From: a virus
Taxonomy: Duplodnaviria > Caudoviricetes
IMG/VR virus record: IMGVR_UViG_3300044788_000040
Span: 1 to 43,780 of that record
DNA length: 43,780 nucleotides
Strand: one strand, 5' to 3'
Shown in pieces: positions 2,396-43,618 of this stretch. Numbering within the stretch: the first letter of the stretch is position 1; every line of letters begins with the position of its first letter. The notes beneath the pieces were generated by a model, which worked only from the letters and a program-made list of their open reading frames with translations, was not told the DNA's origin and made no database searches. The translations under genes and the position numbers were made by a program.

Positions 2396-3141
2396 GCGGG
2401 CCGCTCGGCGAACAGGTTGCTGCGGAGCCAGTCGATCCCGCCCTCGTGCACGAGGACGCTGATATCGACCTTGCCGAAGCCCGGGGGTTCGCCGGGGTAT
2501 TCGGGCAGGTGCTCGTCGCCGTCGCCGTCGTACTGCCACAGGAGCAAGTCAGCGAGCGTGAAGCCTGCCCGCTCGTAGACCTCGTGCGGCAACGTCGACG
2601 TGTAGCGAGCCGGCCAGATGTACGAGCAGCCCATTTTGTCGTGGATGTTCCGCTCGCGCATCGCACCGTTGCCGTAGAGCACGACCTTCCGACCGGTCTC
2701 GGCCGTGCACTTCTCGGCAAACGCGGTGGTGCAGTCGATGATCTGCTGTCTCGTCGCGTCCTGGTTCGCGTTGCGCTTGCTGCCCGGCTTGGAGCCGTCG
2801 TTGCCGAGCTCGACGTCGACGATCGGCCAGAAGTCGCCGACGTCCCAGCCGCCAGCGCGCGTCACGGTCCGCAGATACAAATCGGCCTGCGCGGTGCCGT
2901 CCGATGCGAACTCGAGGAAGTGATACGCGCCGCGGAACCAGTCGACGCCGTAGCGATCGCCGGCGATCGTCCGAAGCGCCTTCCAGTTGTCATCGAACCA
3001 GCCGGGCGAGTACCAACGCCCCTGTGTCGCCTTGATGATCGCTCCGTGCCACGGCGGCCCGAGCGCGGCGAGCACGTCCCACTTCGGCTTTCCGTTGAGG
3101 TCGTACGCGAAGCAATCGACGATCAGCGGATCGACCGTCAT
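2392..3141 (-). CDS. Endolysin, GH25 muramidase
   Basis: AIIKATQG, GAYHF, PIVDVE (DxE), LLWQY, VDIS motifs typical of GH25; start ATG 3141. Confidence 0.88.
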   Translation of the reverse strand: MTVDPLIVDCFAYDLNGKPKWDVLAALGPPWHGAIIKATQGRWYSPGWFDDNWKALRTIAGDRYGVDWFRGAYHFLEFASDGTAQADLYLRTVTRAGGWDVGDFWPIVDVELGNDGSKPGSKRNANQDATRQQIIDCTTAFAEKCTAETGRKVVLYGNGAMRERNIHDKMGCSYIWPARYTSTLPHEVYERAGFTLADLLLWQYDGDGDEHLPEYPGEPPGFGKVDISVLVHEGGIDWLRSNLFAERPA

Positions 3142-3221
3142 TGGACCTTGTCGCCCTTTCGCGGCCGGAAGAACCACATGATCGCGAGCAGGATGGCCAG
3201 CCCGCCGATCGCGAGCTTCAC
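3138..3221 (-). CDS. 27-aa single-TM peptide in lysis cassette
   Basis: VKLAIGGLAILLAIMWFFRPRKGDKVQ; GTGA and ATGA overlaps at both ends. Confidence 0.55.
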   Translation of the reverse strand: MKLAIGGLAILLAIMWFFRPRKGDKVQ

Positions 3222-3562
3222 TTGGGCTCCTTGCCGTCCGGCGTGTCCCACTCGATCGGCAGATCGAGCGGCGGGACGTCGGGATGCGCGGGCGGGTCGA
3301 ACGCCGAGTAGACATCGGATGCCGCATCTTCCAGCGCCTCGAGCTGCATCGGCAGGCCGGCGAGCGCGGCTCGGTTGTTCGCTTCGATGCGAGCCGACTC
3401 GAGTCCGCCTTCAAGAAACCGCTTTCCAATGGCCTTGGCCATGTCGGAGCCCGACGGAGCGTCGGCGCCGGTGAACTTGGCAGCAAGCCACTCGCCGGCC
3501 TCCTCGCCTGCGTCCATCAGGAGGCGGATGAGCGCCGGCTCGATATCCGTCAGCCAGCTCAC
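3218..3562 (-). CDS. Hypothetical protein (lysis region)
   Basis: 114-aa ORF coupled to neighbours. Confidence 0.7.
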   Translation of the reverse strand: MSWLTDIEPALIRLLMDAGEEAGEWLAAKFTGADAPSGSDMAKAIGKRFLEGGLESARIEANNRAALAGLPMQLEALEDAASDVYSAFDPPAHPDVPPLDLPIEWDTPDGKEPK

Positions 3563-3837: not shown

Positions 3838-4301
3838 TTGTCCTCCTCAGGTTTCTTCGGAACCTTGCCGAGCGCGGTGTCGATGCGCTCCTGGTCGGCC
3901 TCGCGCTTCACCTTGTGCTCGGTCCACGACTGGCGTCGTGCGCGCTCTTCGGCGTTCTCGCGGTCGCGCTCGATGTTCGCGAGCTCGTCGGCGATCTTCA
4001 TCTCGTACGAGGTGAAGCAACGAAGGCACAGCTCGTCGCTGTAGCTCTCTTCCCTCAGGCGGTAGTAGTGACCGGCGAGCGGAAGCCCGCACGCCGTGCG
4101 CGCCAGGCCGAGGTTCGACTCGTACCAGGATCCAGCACGCGCGCGATCGACGGTGAGGCGATGCCAGATCACATCCCCCGTGTCGTCGATGGTCACGTGC
4201 ATCGCCGGTACCTCTTCGGGCTCGACGTCGCGCCACGGTTCGACCTGGGCGGCTTCGTCGATCGCATACTCCTCGTAGTGATGAACATCGAGGCTCAGCA
4301 T
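3834..4301 (-). CDS. Hypothetical protein with possible Zn ligands
   Basis: WH...TACG...LCLRC pattern; coupled stops/starts. Confidence 0.65.
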   Translation of the reverse strand: MLSLDVHHYEEYAIDEAAQVEPWRDVEPEEVPAMHVTIDDTGDVIWHRLTVDRARAGSWYESNLGLARTACGLPLAGHYYRLREESYSDELCLRCFTSYEMKIADELANIERDRENAEERARRQSWTEHKVKREADQERIDTALGKVPKKPEEDK

Positions 4302-27967: not shown

Positions 27968-28042
27968 GTTGTGCGTTGCACCCTCGCCTCGCCTTGCACA
28001 GCCATGCCTGGCCGCGCCGCGCCTAACCTCGCCAAGCGAGCC
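27968..28042 (-). repeat. GGC-NN pentamer array B4 with 3' hairpin (putative guide RNA)
   Basis: GGCTC GCTT GGCGA GGTTA GGCGC GGCGC GGCCA GGCAT GGCTG TGCAA GGCGA GGCGA GGGTGCAACGCACAAC. Confidence 0.9.
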
Positions 28043-28264
28043 TCATAGTCCGGCGGGCATCCGAATCATCCGCTTGAGCTTCCCATCGCGGCGCACGCGG
28101 TAGCACGCGAGCACCTTGCTCCCCCGGCGAATCACCGCGTAGTCGAGCCCGTGGAGCGTCTGGGTCTTCGCGGACGTCGGCAGATCCTCGCCGCCGCTCG
28201 CGTAGTACGCGGCCAGCGCCCGCTTCGATGCTTCGTCGAGTCCCATCTCCAATTCGTTGTACAT
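28043..28264 (-). CDS. 73-aa accessory protein of RAMP locus
   Basis: RBS GAGGA then ATG after array B3; MYNELEMG...LACYRVRRDGKLKRMIRMP. Confidence 0.75.
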   Translation of the reverse strand: MYNELEMGLDEASKRALAAYYASGGEDLPTSAKTQTLHGLDYAVIRRGSKVLACYRVRRDGKLKRMIRMPAGL

Positions 28265-28279
28265 GAAGTCCTCGATCGT

Positions 28280-28352
28280 GTGCGTTGCACCCATGCCTCG
28301 CCCTGCCCTGCCCTGCCTCGCCCTGCCCTGCCCCGCCTGGCCCTGCCCAGCC
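28280..28352 (-). repeat. GGC-NN pentamer array B3 (12 perfect units) with 3' hairpin
   Basis: NN = TG AG CA GG AG AG GA AG AG AG GA AT, then GGGTGCAACGCAC. Confidence 0.92.
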
Positions 28353-29015
28353 TCACATCTTCGTCAGCTCGACGCGGAACCGCCCGTGCGGTCCAGGCGT
28401 TCGGCCGCTCGGTCGCCAGTCGCCGAGCCCCTTGTACTCGCCCGCAAACGAGAGGATCGAGAGCAGCGCATCCTGCGTGATCTGATCATCCCAGACGTCG
28501 ATGCGACCGCTGAGCTTCCACTCGTGGAACTTCGGGCGCACGCGGATGTGCTTCGACGCCCCGATCTTCGCTCGCTTCACGAACAGCGAGAATCCGCTCT
28601 TCTCCGCGATCGCCTTGTGCTTCTCGAAGTCGAGCTCGCTCTGCAGCTTGTAGATCGGCTTGGCGTCGATCGTCTTGCCGCGCACCTCGATGGCCCACGC
28701 TGGATCGGCGGTCATCATGCCGCTCTGCGTCTGCGCCTTGAACGTCTTGCCGTTCTTCCCGCCCGGGACGGGCACGCTAGCGCCGCCCTCCATGAAGCAG
28801 CGCATGAGGTTGTCGCTCGGCATCACCACGAGCCCGTCATGCTCGTAGAGGCAACCGAGCCACGTGAAGGCCGGCGTCCGATCGTCGCCCGCCTTGCTGA
28901 GCTTCTTGTTGCCAGGGTCCTCGCGCCATCGAGCGAGCTGGTCCGCGAACTCGATGTTGTCGCGGTGAAGCAGGAGGGGGGTGATCCCCGTGAGCGTTGC
29001 GTTGTAGCTGTTCAT
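28353..29015 (-). CDS. Stand-alone Cas7/RAMP-like protein (220 aa)
   Basis: YNATLTGITPLLLH, VMPSDNLMRCF, RVRPKFHEW, C-terminal Gly-rich loop GLGDWRPSGRTPGPHGRF; RBS AAGGGAG; start trimmed to ATG 29015. Confidence 0.8.
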   Translation of the reverse strand: MNSYNATLTGITPLLLHRDNIEFADQLARWREDPGNKKLSKAGDDRTPAFTWLGCLYEHDGLVVMPSDNLMRCFMEGGASVPVPGGKNGKTFKAQTQSGMMTADPAWAIEVRGKTIDAKPIYKLQSELDFEKHKAIAEKSGFSLFVKRAKIGASKHIRVRPKFHEWKLSGRIDVWDDQITQDALLSILSFAGEYKGLGDWRPSGRTPGPHGRFRVELTKM

Positions 29016-29030
29016 TCGATTCTCCCTTGA

Positions 29031-29120
29031 GTTGTGCGTTGCACCCATGCCTCGCCCTGCCACGCCGTGCCTCGCCCGGCCCGGCCGCGCCGTGCCTTGC
29101 CTCGCCATCCAGGCCTCGGC
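29031..29120 (-). repeat. GGC-NN pentamer array B2 (12 perfect units) with 3' hairpin
   Basis: NN = GA AA AC GC CG CG GA AC GT AG GA AT, then GGGTGCAACGCACAAC. Confidence 0.92.
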
Positions 29121-29124
29121 AGAT

Positions 29125-29613
29125 TCACTTGACCAGCCGCGCTCTCGGCAGCTGGTCCTGCGGTTTGAACTCGATCGCGATCTCCTTGCTCGCCTTGCGC
29201 AAGTGATCGGAAGTCGACTCCATGTGACGGAGCACGTGCTCCGCGACGCGCTGCTGCGCCTCGGGAAGCTTGCCGATCTCGACGCTACGGACGTCGTCGG
29301 CCGCCTTGCGGATCTGCTTCGCGCCGCGGCCGTATCGCTTGATGTCGTCGGCGATGCGATCCATGCCGTCGATGACGCGGAATCCGACGCCTGGAACCGT
29401 CGAGAGACGGAGGTTGTTGACCTTGAGGAGGTGTTTCCGCCACGACGCGGTCACGCTGCGGTAGCGCGCCGATCCGACTTCGACCGCGATCGCCTTGGCG
29501 ACGTCGGCATGAGCGATCTCGTCGTCCGCTTTGATGCCCGGAAATGCGGCGAGAAGCCTCCGAACATCTGGTTCAGTCGGGATTCCGCCGAGAAAAAGAC
29601 CGTGTTTACCCAT
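29125..29613 (-). CDS. Winged-helix-like accessory protein of RAMP locus (162 aa)
   Basis: Helical segment then LSTVPGVGFRV, resembling an OmpR-type wing; RBS GGAG; start trimmed to ATG 29613. Confidence 0.7.
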   Translation of the reverse strand: MGKHGLFLGGIPTEPDVRRLLAAFPGIKADDEIAHADVAKAIAVEVGSARYRSVTASWRKHLLKVNNLRLSTVPGVGFRVIDGMDRIADDIKRYGRGAKQIRKAADDVRSVEIGKLPEAQQRVAEHVLRHMESTSDHLRKASKEIAIEFKPQDQLPRARLVK

Positions 29614-29627
29614 CGTTTCGCTCCATT

Positions 29628-29722
29628 TTGTGATGAACACCCTCGCCTCGCCATGCCGAGCCACGCCCAGCCCTGCCGAGCCACGCCCAGCCCTGCCTTG
29701 CCTGGCCGCGCCGAGCCATGCC
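29628..29722 (-). repeat. GGC-NN pentamer array B1 (16 perfect units) with variant 3' hairpin
   Basis: NN = AT TC GC CA AA AG TG GT TC AG TG GT TC AT GA GA, then GGGTGTTCATCACAA. Confidence 0.92.
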
Positions 29723-40030: not shown

Positions 40031-40527
40031 GCATCGACCCGCGAATCTACCGCCTCCGTGTCGAGCTATTCACGGCCGCTCAAACGCTCAAGGGCGATGA
40101 CCTGCAGGCGTTCGTCGAGCTGATCCGAGATATCTCCGTCGTCCTCGACGCCAACCTCCAAGGCCTCGAGCCGCTCACCATCCCGCCGGTCGATCGCTCG
40201 AAGCAGGTCACAACCGACGGGCGCGATCCGGAGGTCGTTCGGCTCGAGCAGCGCGGCGAGACCGGCATGCACAAGTCGTACATCGTGCTGTCCGACGAGG
40301 AACGCGCGAAGGGCTTCGTCCGTCCGGTGCGCCGTTCGTACAAGCATGAGAAGTGCGGAGCGGTCACCACGATGGGCCAGGCGCTGGCCGAGACGTATGC
40401 GCGTGACCCCAGTTTCTACGGGGCCACTTTCTGTGCGACGTGCGGCGCGCACTTCCCAGTCGGCGAGCACGGCGAATTCGTCTGGGTCGGAGATCGATGG
40501 GACGGCAACGAGAAAGTTGGTGTGTGA
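40027..40527 (+). CDS. Phage hypothetical protein with Cys/His cluster
   Basis: YIVLSDEERAKGFVRPVRRSYKHEKCG...TFCATCGAHFPV; GTG start 40027. Confidence 0.75.
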   Translation: MSIDPRIYRLRVELFTAAQTLKGDDLQAFVELIRDISVVLDANLQGLEPLTIPPVDRSKQVTTDGRDPEVVRLEQRGETGMHKSYIVLSDEERAKGFVRPVRRSYKHEKCGAVTTMGQALAETYARDPSFYGATFCATCGAHFPVGEHGEFVWVGDRWDGNEKVGV

Positions 40528-40724
40528 TGGACGAGACCAACATCTTTCTCAACCTGCTGATCGCTGCGATGCAGGACGCCGTCCTCACCGGCCACATCTC
40601 GCAGCTTCAAACGACGATCACGCCAGAGGGCACGAGCAAGGCGAAGTTGCTGCGCATCATCGTGGTCCCCGAAGAGATGGAGATCGTTCGCCCGCTCGGT
40701 GGCGAGTTCAAGAGGCCGCTGTGA
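40527..40724 (+). CDS. 65-aa hypothetical protein (paralog of 41600-41743)
   Basis: LIAAMQDAVLTGHISQLQTT. Confidence 0.65.
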   Translation: MDETNIFLNLLIAAMQDAVLTGHISQLQTTITPEGTSKAKLLRIIVVPEEMEIVRPLGGEFKRPL

Positions 40725-41415: not shown

Positions 41416-41600
41416 TCTGGATGCTCATCTTCTCGTTCTCGCTCTCGGGCCTCATCGCGATCGTCTGGGTGTTCGCGATCGATCGCGCCGAGGACCGTCG
41501 CATGTCGATGATCGAAGGTCCGCATCGGATGCCGCGCGCGGTTCGGCGCCGGATGAAGAAGTCGCGCGCGGATCTGCGACGAGCACTGAGGAATCGCTGA
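41412..41600 (+). CDS. Small membrane protein
   Basis: MIWMLIFSFSLSGLIAIVWVFAI plus basic tail. Confidence 0.6.
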   Translation: MIWMLIFSFSLSGLIAIVWVFAIDRAEDRRMSMIEGPHRMPRAVRRRMKKSRADLRRALRNR

Positions 41601-41743
41601 TGTCGACCGAAGCGGACATCTTCATCGGGATCCTGATCGCAGCGATGGAGGACGCGGTGACGACCGGCCACATCTCGCAGCTGCAAACCACGATGATCGA
41701 CAACGCAGCAGAGCAATTCCTACGACGAGCGAGGTCACGGTGA
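41600..41743 (+). CDS. 47-aa hypothetical protein (paralog of 40527-40724)
   Basis: LIAAMEDAVTTGHISQLQTT. Confidence 0.5.
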   Translation: MSTEADIFIGILIAAMEDAVTTGHISQLQTTMIDNAAEQFLRRARSR

Positions 41744-41812
41744 TCTCGACTCCACAAGTTTCCCAAGCACAGCACCCATCACACCGACGGGATTGCTTGG
41801 GCGGAGCACGAC

Positions 41813-42514
41813 ATGACCAAGACGAAGGAAGCGACGAAGACAGAGGCAGAACCGAAGCCGCAGATCATCACGATCAAGCCACCGAACATCCAGACGATCG
41901 AGTTGACGATCGAGGGAACTGCGCCGTACGTGCAGCACAAGTTCAGCGCGAAAGCGAAGGCGCAGATCAAGGCGACTCAGGAAGCCGGATCGGTCGACAA
42001 GTCGAAGAAGGTACGCAGCTCGAAAGACTTCGAGGAGGTCTATCGGCAGGCGTTGCACGTAGGGATCGACGGGCGCTACGGAATTCCGGCGCCTGCGTTC
42101 CGCAACGCTGCGATCAGCGCGTGTCGGCTGATCGGTTTCAAGATGACGATGGCGAAGATGGCGATTTTTGTACTCGCCGACACGCTCGATGCAGACGAGC
42201 GCTCACCTCTGGTTCACATCAATCCGGCGAGCAAGGCGACGCTCGCGAAACAGGGAATCTCCGACGAGCAGCCCCATCTGTTCATGAGCCACGCCCGCAA
42301 CGACAACGGCAGCGTCGATCTGCGTGCTCGACCGATGTGGGATCCAGGTTGGACCGCGCAGCTCCGCATCCAGTTCGATGCGGACGTGTTCAGCCCGACG
42401 GACGTGGCGAACCTGATCGCACGCGTTGGTGCTCAAGTCGGGGTCGGCGAGGGTCGACCGGACTCGAAGGACAGCGCGGGCGTCGGTTGGGGGACGTTCA
42501 AGATCGTTGGCTAG
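41813..42514 (+). CDS. Second stand-alone Cas7/RAMP-like protein (233 aa)
   Basis: IELTIEGTAPYVQH, YGIPAPAFRNAAISAC, LRARPMWDPGW, Gly-rich loop GVGEGRPDSKDSAGVGWGTF. Confidence 0.82.
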   Translation: MTKTKEATKTEAEPKPQIITIKPPNIQTIELTIEGTAPYVQHKFSAKAKAQIKATQEAGSVDKSKKVRSSKDFEEVYRQALHVGIDGRYGIPAPAFRNAAISACRLIGFKMTMAKMAIFVLADTLDADERSPLVHINPASKATLAKQGISDEQPHLFMSHARNDNGSVDLRARPMWDPGWTAQLRIQFDADVFSPTDVANLIARVGAQVGVGEGRPDSKDSAGVGWGTFKIVG

Positions 42515-43122
42515 GCGGGACGAGACGAGGGGCTTGGCAGGCGAGGCACGGCGCGGCCTGGCGCGGCGATGCATGGCGCGGCGAGATCTTGGGGAGGCAA
42601 CGCAGGCGGGGACACGCGAGGCTCGACGAGACCGGGATGGGCCCGGAGCGATACGACACGGCAGCGCAGGCGGGGCGAGGCCACGTTGGGCCCGGAGTGG
42701 CACGGCAGGGCCTGGCTGGATTCGCAGCACATCGCTGCGCAAGGCTGCGCTGGGCAGGCAAGGCTGGGCTGGGTGCGTCGCGGCGAGGCTGGGCACGGCA
42801 ACGCAGGAGTCGCCAGGCGGGGCTTGGCTCGGCATGGAATTGCGTGGCACGGCAGGCATGGCAAGGCGCGGCGTGGCGCGGCGCGGCATGGCGAGGCAGG
42901 CGAGGCAGGCAAGGCGCGGCGAGGCGAGGCGAGGCCCGGCCAGACTTGGCATCGCAGGCGACGCAGGACGTGGCTGGGCCCGGCCCGGACTCGCAAGGCA
43001 GGGCATCAACGGCAGGCACGGCGTGGCGCGGAGAGGCATGGCCAGGCATGGCGAGGCAGGCATGGCATGGCATGGCAGGGCCAGTACGGGCGTGGAATGG
43101 CACGGACACGCAGGCGTGGATT
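42515..43122 (+). repeat. ~600-nt GGC-NN pentamer array punctuated by 4-nt (G/C)GCA spacers (putative multi-guide precursor RNA)
   Basis: e.g. GGCA|GGCAT GGCAA GGCGC GGCGT GGCGC GGCGC GGCAT GGCGA|GGCA; fills the gap between RAMP stop and next RBS. Confidence 0.92.
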
Positions 43123-43141
43123 CAACAACAGGAGATCTCGA

Positions 43142-43618
43142 ATGACTGACTACGCATTCTCACGGCCCATGCGAAAGGGCATCGACGCGAACGACGTCGG
43201 CCGTTCGATTCAATCGCTCGTCGACAAGCACGGCGAAGCTCGACCCGAGCATATCGTCAAGGCGGCGCGTAGCGAGAAGCATCCGCTACACGCCCACTTC
43301 GAGTGGGACGACAGCGAGGCAGCGAAACAGCACCGACTCGAACAAGCACGCTACGTCCTGCGCGCGGTGACGATCGTTCGCGAGGATCGACCGGACGTCA
43401 CCATCCGCGCGTTCGTCAACGTCGAGCGCGAAGGTGCGTGGAATCCGATCGATGTCGTGCTCGCGAGCCCGACTGGACGAGAGCAGCTGCTCGCCCAAGC
43501 GCTCTCGGATCTCCAAGCGCTGTCCCGCAAATACCACGTCCTCGAAGAACTCGAAGACGTGAGGTCGGCGATCGCTCGACTCGCCGACGAGAAGCGTGAA
43601 CAGAAGGAAGCGGCGTAG
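43142..43618 (+). CDS. Accessory protein of second RAMP locus (158 aa)
   Basis: RBS ACAGGAG; HPLHAHFEWDDSEAAKQHRLEQAR motif; start trimmed to ATG 43142. Confidence 0.8.
   Translation: MTDYAFSRPMRKGIDANDVGRSIQSLVDKHGEARPEHIVKAARSEKHPLHAHFEWDDSEAAKQHRLEQARYVLRAVTIVREDRPDVTIRAFVNVEREGAWNPIDVVLASPTGREQLLAQALSDLQALSRKYHVLEELEDVRSAIARLADEKREQKEAA

Follow-up and report, generated by a model that had tools for sequence, protein, structure and literature searches.

A probable VIPR system with a staggered guide array in a temperate phage that carries two vipr loci

The locus at positions 41813-43618 of the virus record IMGVR_UViG_3300044788_000040 (locus 2 in the following) can be read, with a probability of around 0.85, as a VIPR system that likely acts as an RNA-guided silencer of the genes of rival phages. 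The locus is intact and real, and it is of a kind that has already been published; as VIPR systems have been described, the locus itself comes as no surprise and its value is practical. The window, which is the whole stretch of 43,780 nt that was analyzed, comprises the entire virus record and was rated 94% complete. The gene content is that of a phage (integrase, terminase, portal, tail sheath and helicase), the phage is temperate, and it was found in sediment runs. A search with the terminase in genomes recovered no relative and a search with the helicase recovered one viral relative. Beyond what a preliminary description of the sequence had noted, we found that the system is a published one, that its array consists of around 11 staggered guides, and that the two loci of this phage represent different VIPR subtypes.

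The locus and its two proteins

Locus 2 is made up of the following features:

41813-42514, plus strand: vipr gene (233 aa), encoding a RAMP/Cas7-like guide-binding protein (phrog_4652, fold model, profile)
42514-43117, plus strand: staggered GGC-NN array, around 11 candidate guides and short leftovers (segmentation)
43130-43134, plus strand: ribosome-binding site AGGAG, 7 nt 5' of the partner gene (sequence)
43142-43618, plus strand: vap-type accessory gene (158 aa) (phrog_15946, neighborhood, fold model)

The preliminary description had placed the array between the stop codon of the first gene and the ribosome-binding site of the second, and this layout was recovered: the first base of the array is the last base of the vipr TAG stop (42514), its end lies at around 43117, just before the AGGAG, and the 158-aa accessory gene indeed holds LHAHFEWDDSEAAKQHRLEQAR. 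On its strand the locus runs from a likely repressor towards the integrase. Neither a sigma-70 promoter nor a terminator marking the locus-2 transcript was found, no Rfam family was assigned to this transcript, and the array transcript showed no unusual fold (folding z of -1.4); these negatives count against the VIPR reading. In an RNA run, bits of vipr and vap were covered, and so was the terminase; because this run consisted of assembled contigs only and the terminase was covered too, the contigs show no expression and the missing cover of the array is uninformative. Upstream of vipr, two short ORFs on the plus strand (40527-40724 and 41600-41743) start with near-identical peptide stretches (LLIAAM.DAV.TGHISQLQTT), one of the two being apparently truncated, and strain variation among runs was observed around 41510-41770.

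All four sequence motifs by which the 233-aa protein had originally been singled out are present in the ORF at 41813-42514. The protein belongs to phrog_4652 (E 2.6e-16), a family that also holds a Felixounavirus Vipr homolog (E 7.9e-97), and Pfam and NCBIfam gave no name for either this protein or its accessory protein. The structure model (pLDDT 89) was matched by Foldseek to chains of CRISPR-Csm and related complexes, a CRISPR-Csm chain ranking first (E 7.6e-7, TM about 0.4); as modelled, the protein folds like Cas7/Csm3 and has the RAMP fold. No other RAMP or cas genes were seen beside the locus-2 vipr, and no CRISPR repeat-spacer array was found at the locus. We recovered 2630 homologs at E ≤ 0.001 among 2924 candidates, and the Vipr family is spread across many phyla. 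A profile made from 100 of the 120 listed homologs gave a weak match (E 0.0012) to the SUSP1 Vipr (PDB 36pp).

The available part of the report on the SUSP1 Vipr lists H17, R138, D177, W178 and R179 as the contacts to GGY and describes W178 as stacking on the second G (10.64898/2026.04.26.720927). In the locus-2 Vipr, R138 and R179 correspond to the invariant R173 and R215, and H17 and D177 align with H42 and E213. The position of W178 is occupied by a glycine (G214) within the G-loop, which reads GVGEGRP, and this glycine is invariant in 100 homologs. Judged by the aligned sequences, the G-loop tryptophan is lost across the locus-2 clade, and the missing stacking residue (W178 to G214) is a point against a SUSP1-like working of the protein.

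The accessory protein belongs to phrog_15946 (E 1.1e-21) and was modelled with a pLDDT of 95. The fold search yielded weak winged-helix neighbors only (MntR and FoxO1, E about 1), with no match at E ≤ 0.001 and no Z of 8 or more; the model likely combines a winged-helix-like N-terminus with a helical C-terminal hairpin. Its neighbors in the Atlas were unnamed viral clusters, and nothing in its family or fold assignments pointed to a nuclease. By analogy with the published vap genes, the protein may be regarded as a putative DNA-binding helper. A profile comparison of its family with the SUSP1-type phrog_5926 returned a probability of 0.1%.

The staggered array

The lag-5 self-match of the array amounted to 0.55; when the array was resampled 1000 times under a Markov model, the value was 0.33 +/- 0.02 (maximum 0.40). 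When the whole window was scanned in 200-nt bins, values above 0.40 were found only at 28.2-28.5, 29.6-29.8 and 42.4-43.1 kb; the peaks of the 5-nt autocorrelation thus fall at the two loci alone, as had been anticipated, and at both of these GGC occupies the coding strand, which is also what had been described. The array does not result from faulty assembly, because a second sediment study yielded the same 521 nt (42547-43067) without any difference and the contig depth is similar for both loci in the same runs.

The array can be divided into around 11 segments, each with 7-12 full GGC-NN units, and is punctuated by one-base register slips: 10 of the 11 segments end in a 4-nt unit, which is [G/C]GCA in nine cases and GGCT in one. 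The entropy is 0.5-0.8 bits at positions 1-3 of the unit and 1.9-2.0 bits at positions 4-5, and the 11 segments carry 11 distinct NN strings. Segmentation yielded the following candidate guides:

42540-42589, plus strand: guide A
42605-42668, plus strand: guide B (heavily degenerate)
42669-42717, plus strand: guide C
42718-42756, plus strand: guide D (heavily degenerate)
42757-42805, plus strand: guide E
42806-42854, plus strand: guide F
42855-42898, plus strand: guide G
42908-42956, plus strand: guide H
42957-43005, plus strand: guide I
43015-43058, plus strand: guide J
43059-43112, plus strand: guide K

No structured tail was found between the locus-2 segments. A staggered layout, in which guides overlap by one base, was predicted in a study whose small-RNA sequencing confirmed two other layouts and which lists the staggered one as still awaiting such confirmation (10.64898/2026.04.26.720920), and the available parts of the VIPR preprints report no experiment on a staggered array. 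Canonical GGY is present in 68 of the 100 full units of segments A-K, and in 4 of 12 and 1 of 7 units of the degenerate segments B and D, respectively. Given that GGA, GAY and AGY swaps abolish silencing by SUSP1 (10.64898/2026.04.26.720920), the 32 units in 100 that deviate from GGY constitute a point against VIPR function; non-canonical VIPR repeats are reported in the available part of another preprint (10.64898/2026.10.21.760802). The octamer GCAACGCA was observed at two locus-2 junctions (42597 and 42798, plus strand) and in three locus-1 tails (29042, 28288 and 27979, minus strand), these VIPR junctions and tails holding 5 of the 7 copies in the window, and it may be a hint of a 3' end signal that is common to both loci.

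Relatives, reading rule and targets

Silencing, the skip rule and anti-phage targets have been established for the systems of SUSP1 and P. fulva (10.64898/2026.04.26.720920), work that also features in the available part of 10.64898/2026.10.15.759431. By analogy with these two systems, filament formation, one-base-skip reading of double-stranded DNA and silencing of rivals may be envisaged for locus 2 as follows. The vipr gene, the array and vap would likely be co-transcribed from the repressor-to-integrase side of the temperate phage. Each five-base unit of the RNA would be covered by one copy of Vipr, which hides GGC and displays NN, and these NN pairs would read double-stranded DNA in steps of two bases, with every third base, usually the codon wobble, being skipped. 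Every four-base [G/C]GCA slip would mark the boundary between one guide and its successor, for a total of around 11 guides, and the bound filaments together with the accessory protein would block transcription, with no cutting of the DNA.

Of 600 candidates in a viral scan, 570 were confirmed and the best 80 of these were kept. Within these best 80 loci, a sense-strand array lay beside vipr in 74 and an antisense array in 5, and a homolog of the accessory gene adjoined vipr in 64, in line with the proposal that the neighborhood of the latter family be consulted. Among 67 loci from genomes of many phyla, the array was sense in 55 and antisense in none. Arrays without RAMP-like genes had been named as the observation that would speak against the pairing; instead, arrays were found to travel with the gene. 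Regarding the claim that the repeat is the RNA partner of the protein and not a microsatellite, the array-gene pairing therefore stood, and the partner role, demonstrated for other VIPR systems in published work, would follow here from homology.

The slips are equally characteristic of the relatives. Among the related loci, 58 had a distinct array of at least 120 nt, and each of these showed two or more four-nt slips; under equal penalties 432 four-base units were recovered versus 8 six-base units. NGCA made up 384 of these 432, and 287 of 353 inner segments held 8-14 units. One related array (L001:3525-3814) differs from those of the other relatives in that every slip is preceded by repeated TTCTT units and segments are duplicated internally. 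Among cultured phages, the vipr and vap families co-occur in the same 33 records, which comprise Mycobacterium phage Brocalys (gp45/gp46) and its relatives, Gordonia phages and Cyanophage Cy-LDV1 (g34/g33), and the loci lie close to repressor/antirepressor and excisionase genes. Staggered GGC-NN arrays were visible in both cultured phages that were inspected; these unannotated arrays are located at 1100-1350 for Brocalys (NC_031262.1, L212) and at 3120-3310 and 3910-4070 for Cy-LDV1 (L210).

The core NN letters of 314 segments correlated with sense-strand codon positions 1-2 (r 0.70, p 0.0024), versus an |r| of at most 0.27 for the five other frame/strand choices, and 204 of the 314 segments leaned to sense. 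Such a resemblance is expected if the skip rule holds, because guides would then skip the wobble base. In a direct search of 439 segments of the relatives against 2.4 Mb, five matches of at least 90% were found under skip 1, compared to none under skips 0, 2 and 3 and one for shuffled segments under skip 1. At 85% the excess under skip 1 is small (21 versus 19 shuffled), a first, smaller search at 90% gave 2 versus 2 shuffled, and three of the five top matches are A-rich or lie outside a clear gene. These five include the two clearest cases, namely a guide of a relative that matched the Walker A of an AAA_24 gene at 20 of 22 positions and guide L158:7636, for which 18 of the 20 bases read agreed, in the wobble frame, with the vipr gene of another phage (L033:3568). 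Guides L036:4378, L012:4431 and L012:4303, carried by two phages that are unrelated, spell the Walker A region of an AAA_24 ATPase when decoded, which suggests that AAA_24 ATPase genes may be a favored target class. A similar S-D-[PS]-Y-D-like decoded peptide was observed in L053:2845, L058:3963, L061:4279, L065:4659 and L067:4330, possibly pointing to one common target gene for the five loci. The AAA_24 label apart, several decoded segments of the relatives read as what we take to be phage motifs. For the clade as a whole, one-base-skip targets in other elements are supported by these sequence comparisons.

These data also bear on the question whether the locus-2 clade reads its array by another rule, be it a different spacing, RNA targets or cutting. 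The replacement of W178 by glycine and of D177 by glutamate, the 32% of non-GGY units, an accessory family that is not of the SUSP1 type and the missing tail structure would all be compatible with such a rule; nevertheless, only skip 1 is compatible with the signal in codon positions and with the AAA_24 and vipr matches, and an accessory protein with no nuclease family or fold seen hardly argues for cutting, which makes another rule improbable.

When the guides of this phage itself were compared with its own genome, none of the 15 guides had a self-target above shuffles under skip 1 with the arrays masked, and no match above shuffles appeared when the two loci were unmasked. In the full set of self-target tests (15 guides, skips 0-3), 1 of 60 exceeded the shuffles, namely a locus-1 guide under skip 3 (18/22). 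The vipr genes were tested as targets of this phage's guides and were not found as such. Exact public scans with one-base-skip seeds were performed for guides A, B, C, E, F, I and K, and each of the seven gave 2-16 matches, at chance level and with no convergence: six across four unrelated proteins for guide A, 15 with an extension of 0-3 of 8 further bases for guide B, 16 in metagenomes without a common gene for guide C, seven for guide E, six for guide F (one reaching 18/18 in a record of 34% GC without a long wobble-aligned frame), and nine and two for guides K and I, respectively. Two of the guide-A matches (18/20) lie in head-assembly genes of phages with 66% GC; these are leads only, because no second guide supports them, all others staying below 80% across the five candidate records. 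Guide E matched an ORF of L153 at 16/18, which is within the shuffle range. The searches run thus assigned no target to the guides of this phage, which weighs against the VIPR reading.

The lack of a rival target in these searches, which host genes fell outside, and the position on the repressor-to-integrase side could also be expected if the guides regulated the phage's own or host genes rather than rival elements; yet, considering that no self match rose above shuffles for the 15 guides under skip 1 and that the best matches of the relatives are phage-type genes, we regard this as a small chance. Least probable of all is a functionless array, be it a microsatellite, a coding repeat or a decayed remnant, a reading already largely refuted for the family as a whole: long open frames do cross the array on both strands, and segments B and D are degenerate, but the GC of the crossing frames is flat (0.70-0.77 at all three codon positions), unlike in real genes, the NN positions are near maximal entropy, the slips recur regularly and in one direction, arrays in many phyla keep to vipr and to its strand, and both flanking genes are intact.

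Two loci in one phage and comparison with known systems

The VIPR reading of locus 2 gains context from the second cassette of the phage (locus 1), which contains:

28353-29015, minus strand: locus-1 vipr gene, SUSP1-like (phrog_4652 E 8.3e-21; PDB 36pp E 1.5e-10)
29125-29613, minus strand: locus-1 accessory gene, weakly of the Felixounavirus vap family (phrog_5926 E 5e-4)
within 27971-29722, minus strand: four separate locus-1 guides, with starts at 29722, 29106, 28352 and 28033 (sequence)

This complete cassette (27971-29722, minus strand) is flanked by the large terminase gene and by the gene for what is probably the small terminase. Its Vipr has the GDWRP loop in common with the SUSP1 Vipr, and three of the four guides end in the tail GGGTGCAACGCAC. 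The gene that adjoins vipr in phage allfine belongs to phrog_5926 (E 7e-76). A small extra ORF (28043-28264) was observed inside the cassette, and in the first guide (29643-29722, minus strand) four units (20 nt) are directly duplicated. The two RAMP-like proteins had been described as related yet clearly divergent, and both aspects hold: both are members of phrog_4652, so that the lack of homology named as a refuting observation was not borne out, and the similarity between them is remote (24% over 141 aa, E 8e-4; profile probability 58%, E 9.7e-5). In a phylogenetic tree, the locus-1 and Felixounavirus proteins were not placeable owing to saturated branches. This phage has two phrog_4652 genes, compared to a single one per record in 41 related records, which were selected from the best 80 for their greater length and of which 15 are at least 90% complete. 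Two systems at one locus are not without precedent, the published count being 667 systems in 664 loci (10.64898/2026.04.26.720920).

We infer different timing and separate guide pools for the two systems. More tentatively, and with the odds rather against the full scenario, the phage might employ two orthogonal VIPR systems on different timetables, the tail-less staggered one belonging to an early/lysogenic operon and the tailed SUSP1-like one to a late packaging operon; the slip alone, with no tail or ribozyme, would then punctuate a single vipr-array-vap transcript, and the G-loop change from Trp to Gly would make non-GGY units tolerable. If a one-base slip suffices to separate guides, this would be a very compact form of multiplexing, with about ten silencing guides per RNA. 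Having a tailed as well as a tail-less system, this genome offers a direct way to ask whether guides are shared between the two proteins or kept apart, and cultured relatives such as Brocalys, which grows on Mycobacterium smegmatis, ease the testing of staggered arrays.

Compared with known systems, the most distant likeness is to Cas7/Csm3 of the class 1 CRISPR systems, which have the RAMP fold with thumb and G-rich loop in common with the locus-2 Vipr; in contrast to these, locus 2 has no repeat-spacer array, Rfam match or cas operon, and its guide information is split into dinucleotides. Type II VIPR (Escherichia phage SUSP1 and a Pseudomonas fulva prophage; PDB 36pp) has a homologous Vipr with a conserved thumb arginine and G-loop, the same pentamer code and an adjoining accessory gene. 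However, the SUSP1 guides end in a structured tail of ~40 nt whereas those of locus 2 have none, the G-loop reads GDWRP in SUSP1 and GEGRP in locus 2, and the accessory gene belongs to phrog_5926 in the SUSP1 type and to phrog_15946 in locus 2; the tail and the vap1-family accessory gene that mark Type II (SUSP1-like) systems are thus both absent from locus 2. The loci of Brocalys, the Gordonia phages and Cy-LDV1 have the same vipr and vap families (31-50% identity) and are annotated as hypothetical only, and the Brocalys Vipr keeps GDWRP, unlike the locus-2 Vipr. The closest counterpart is the published staggered VIPR (10.64898/2026.04.26.720920), which likewise is phage-encoded and has a lone RAMP gene, an accessory gene and GGY/NN repeats, with about 9-16 units per guide and neighbors overlapping by one base, the same layout as found here. 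In locus 2 the array lies between vipr and vap and about a third of the units are non-canonical, but no difference of kind was found between the two.
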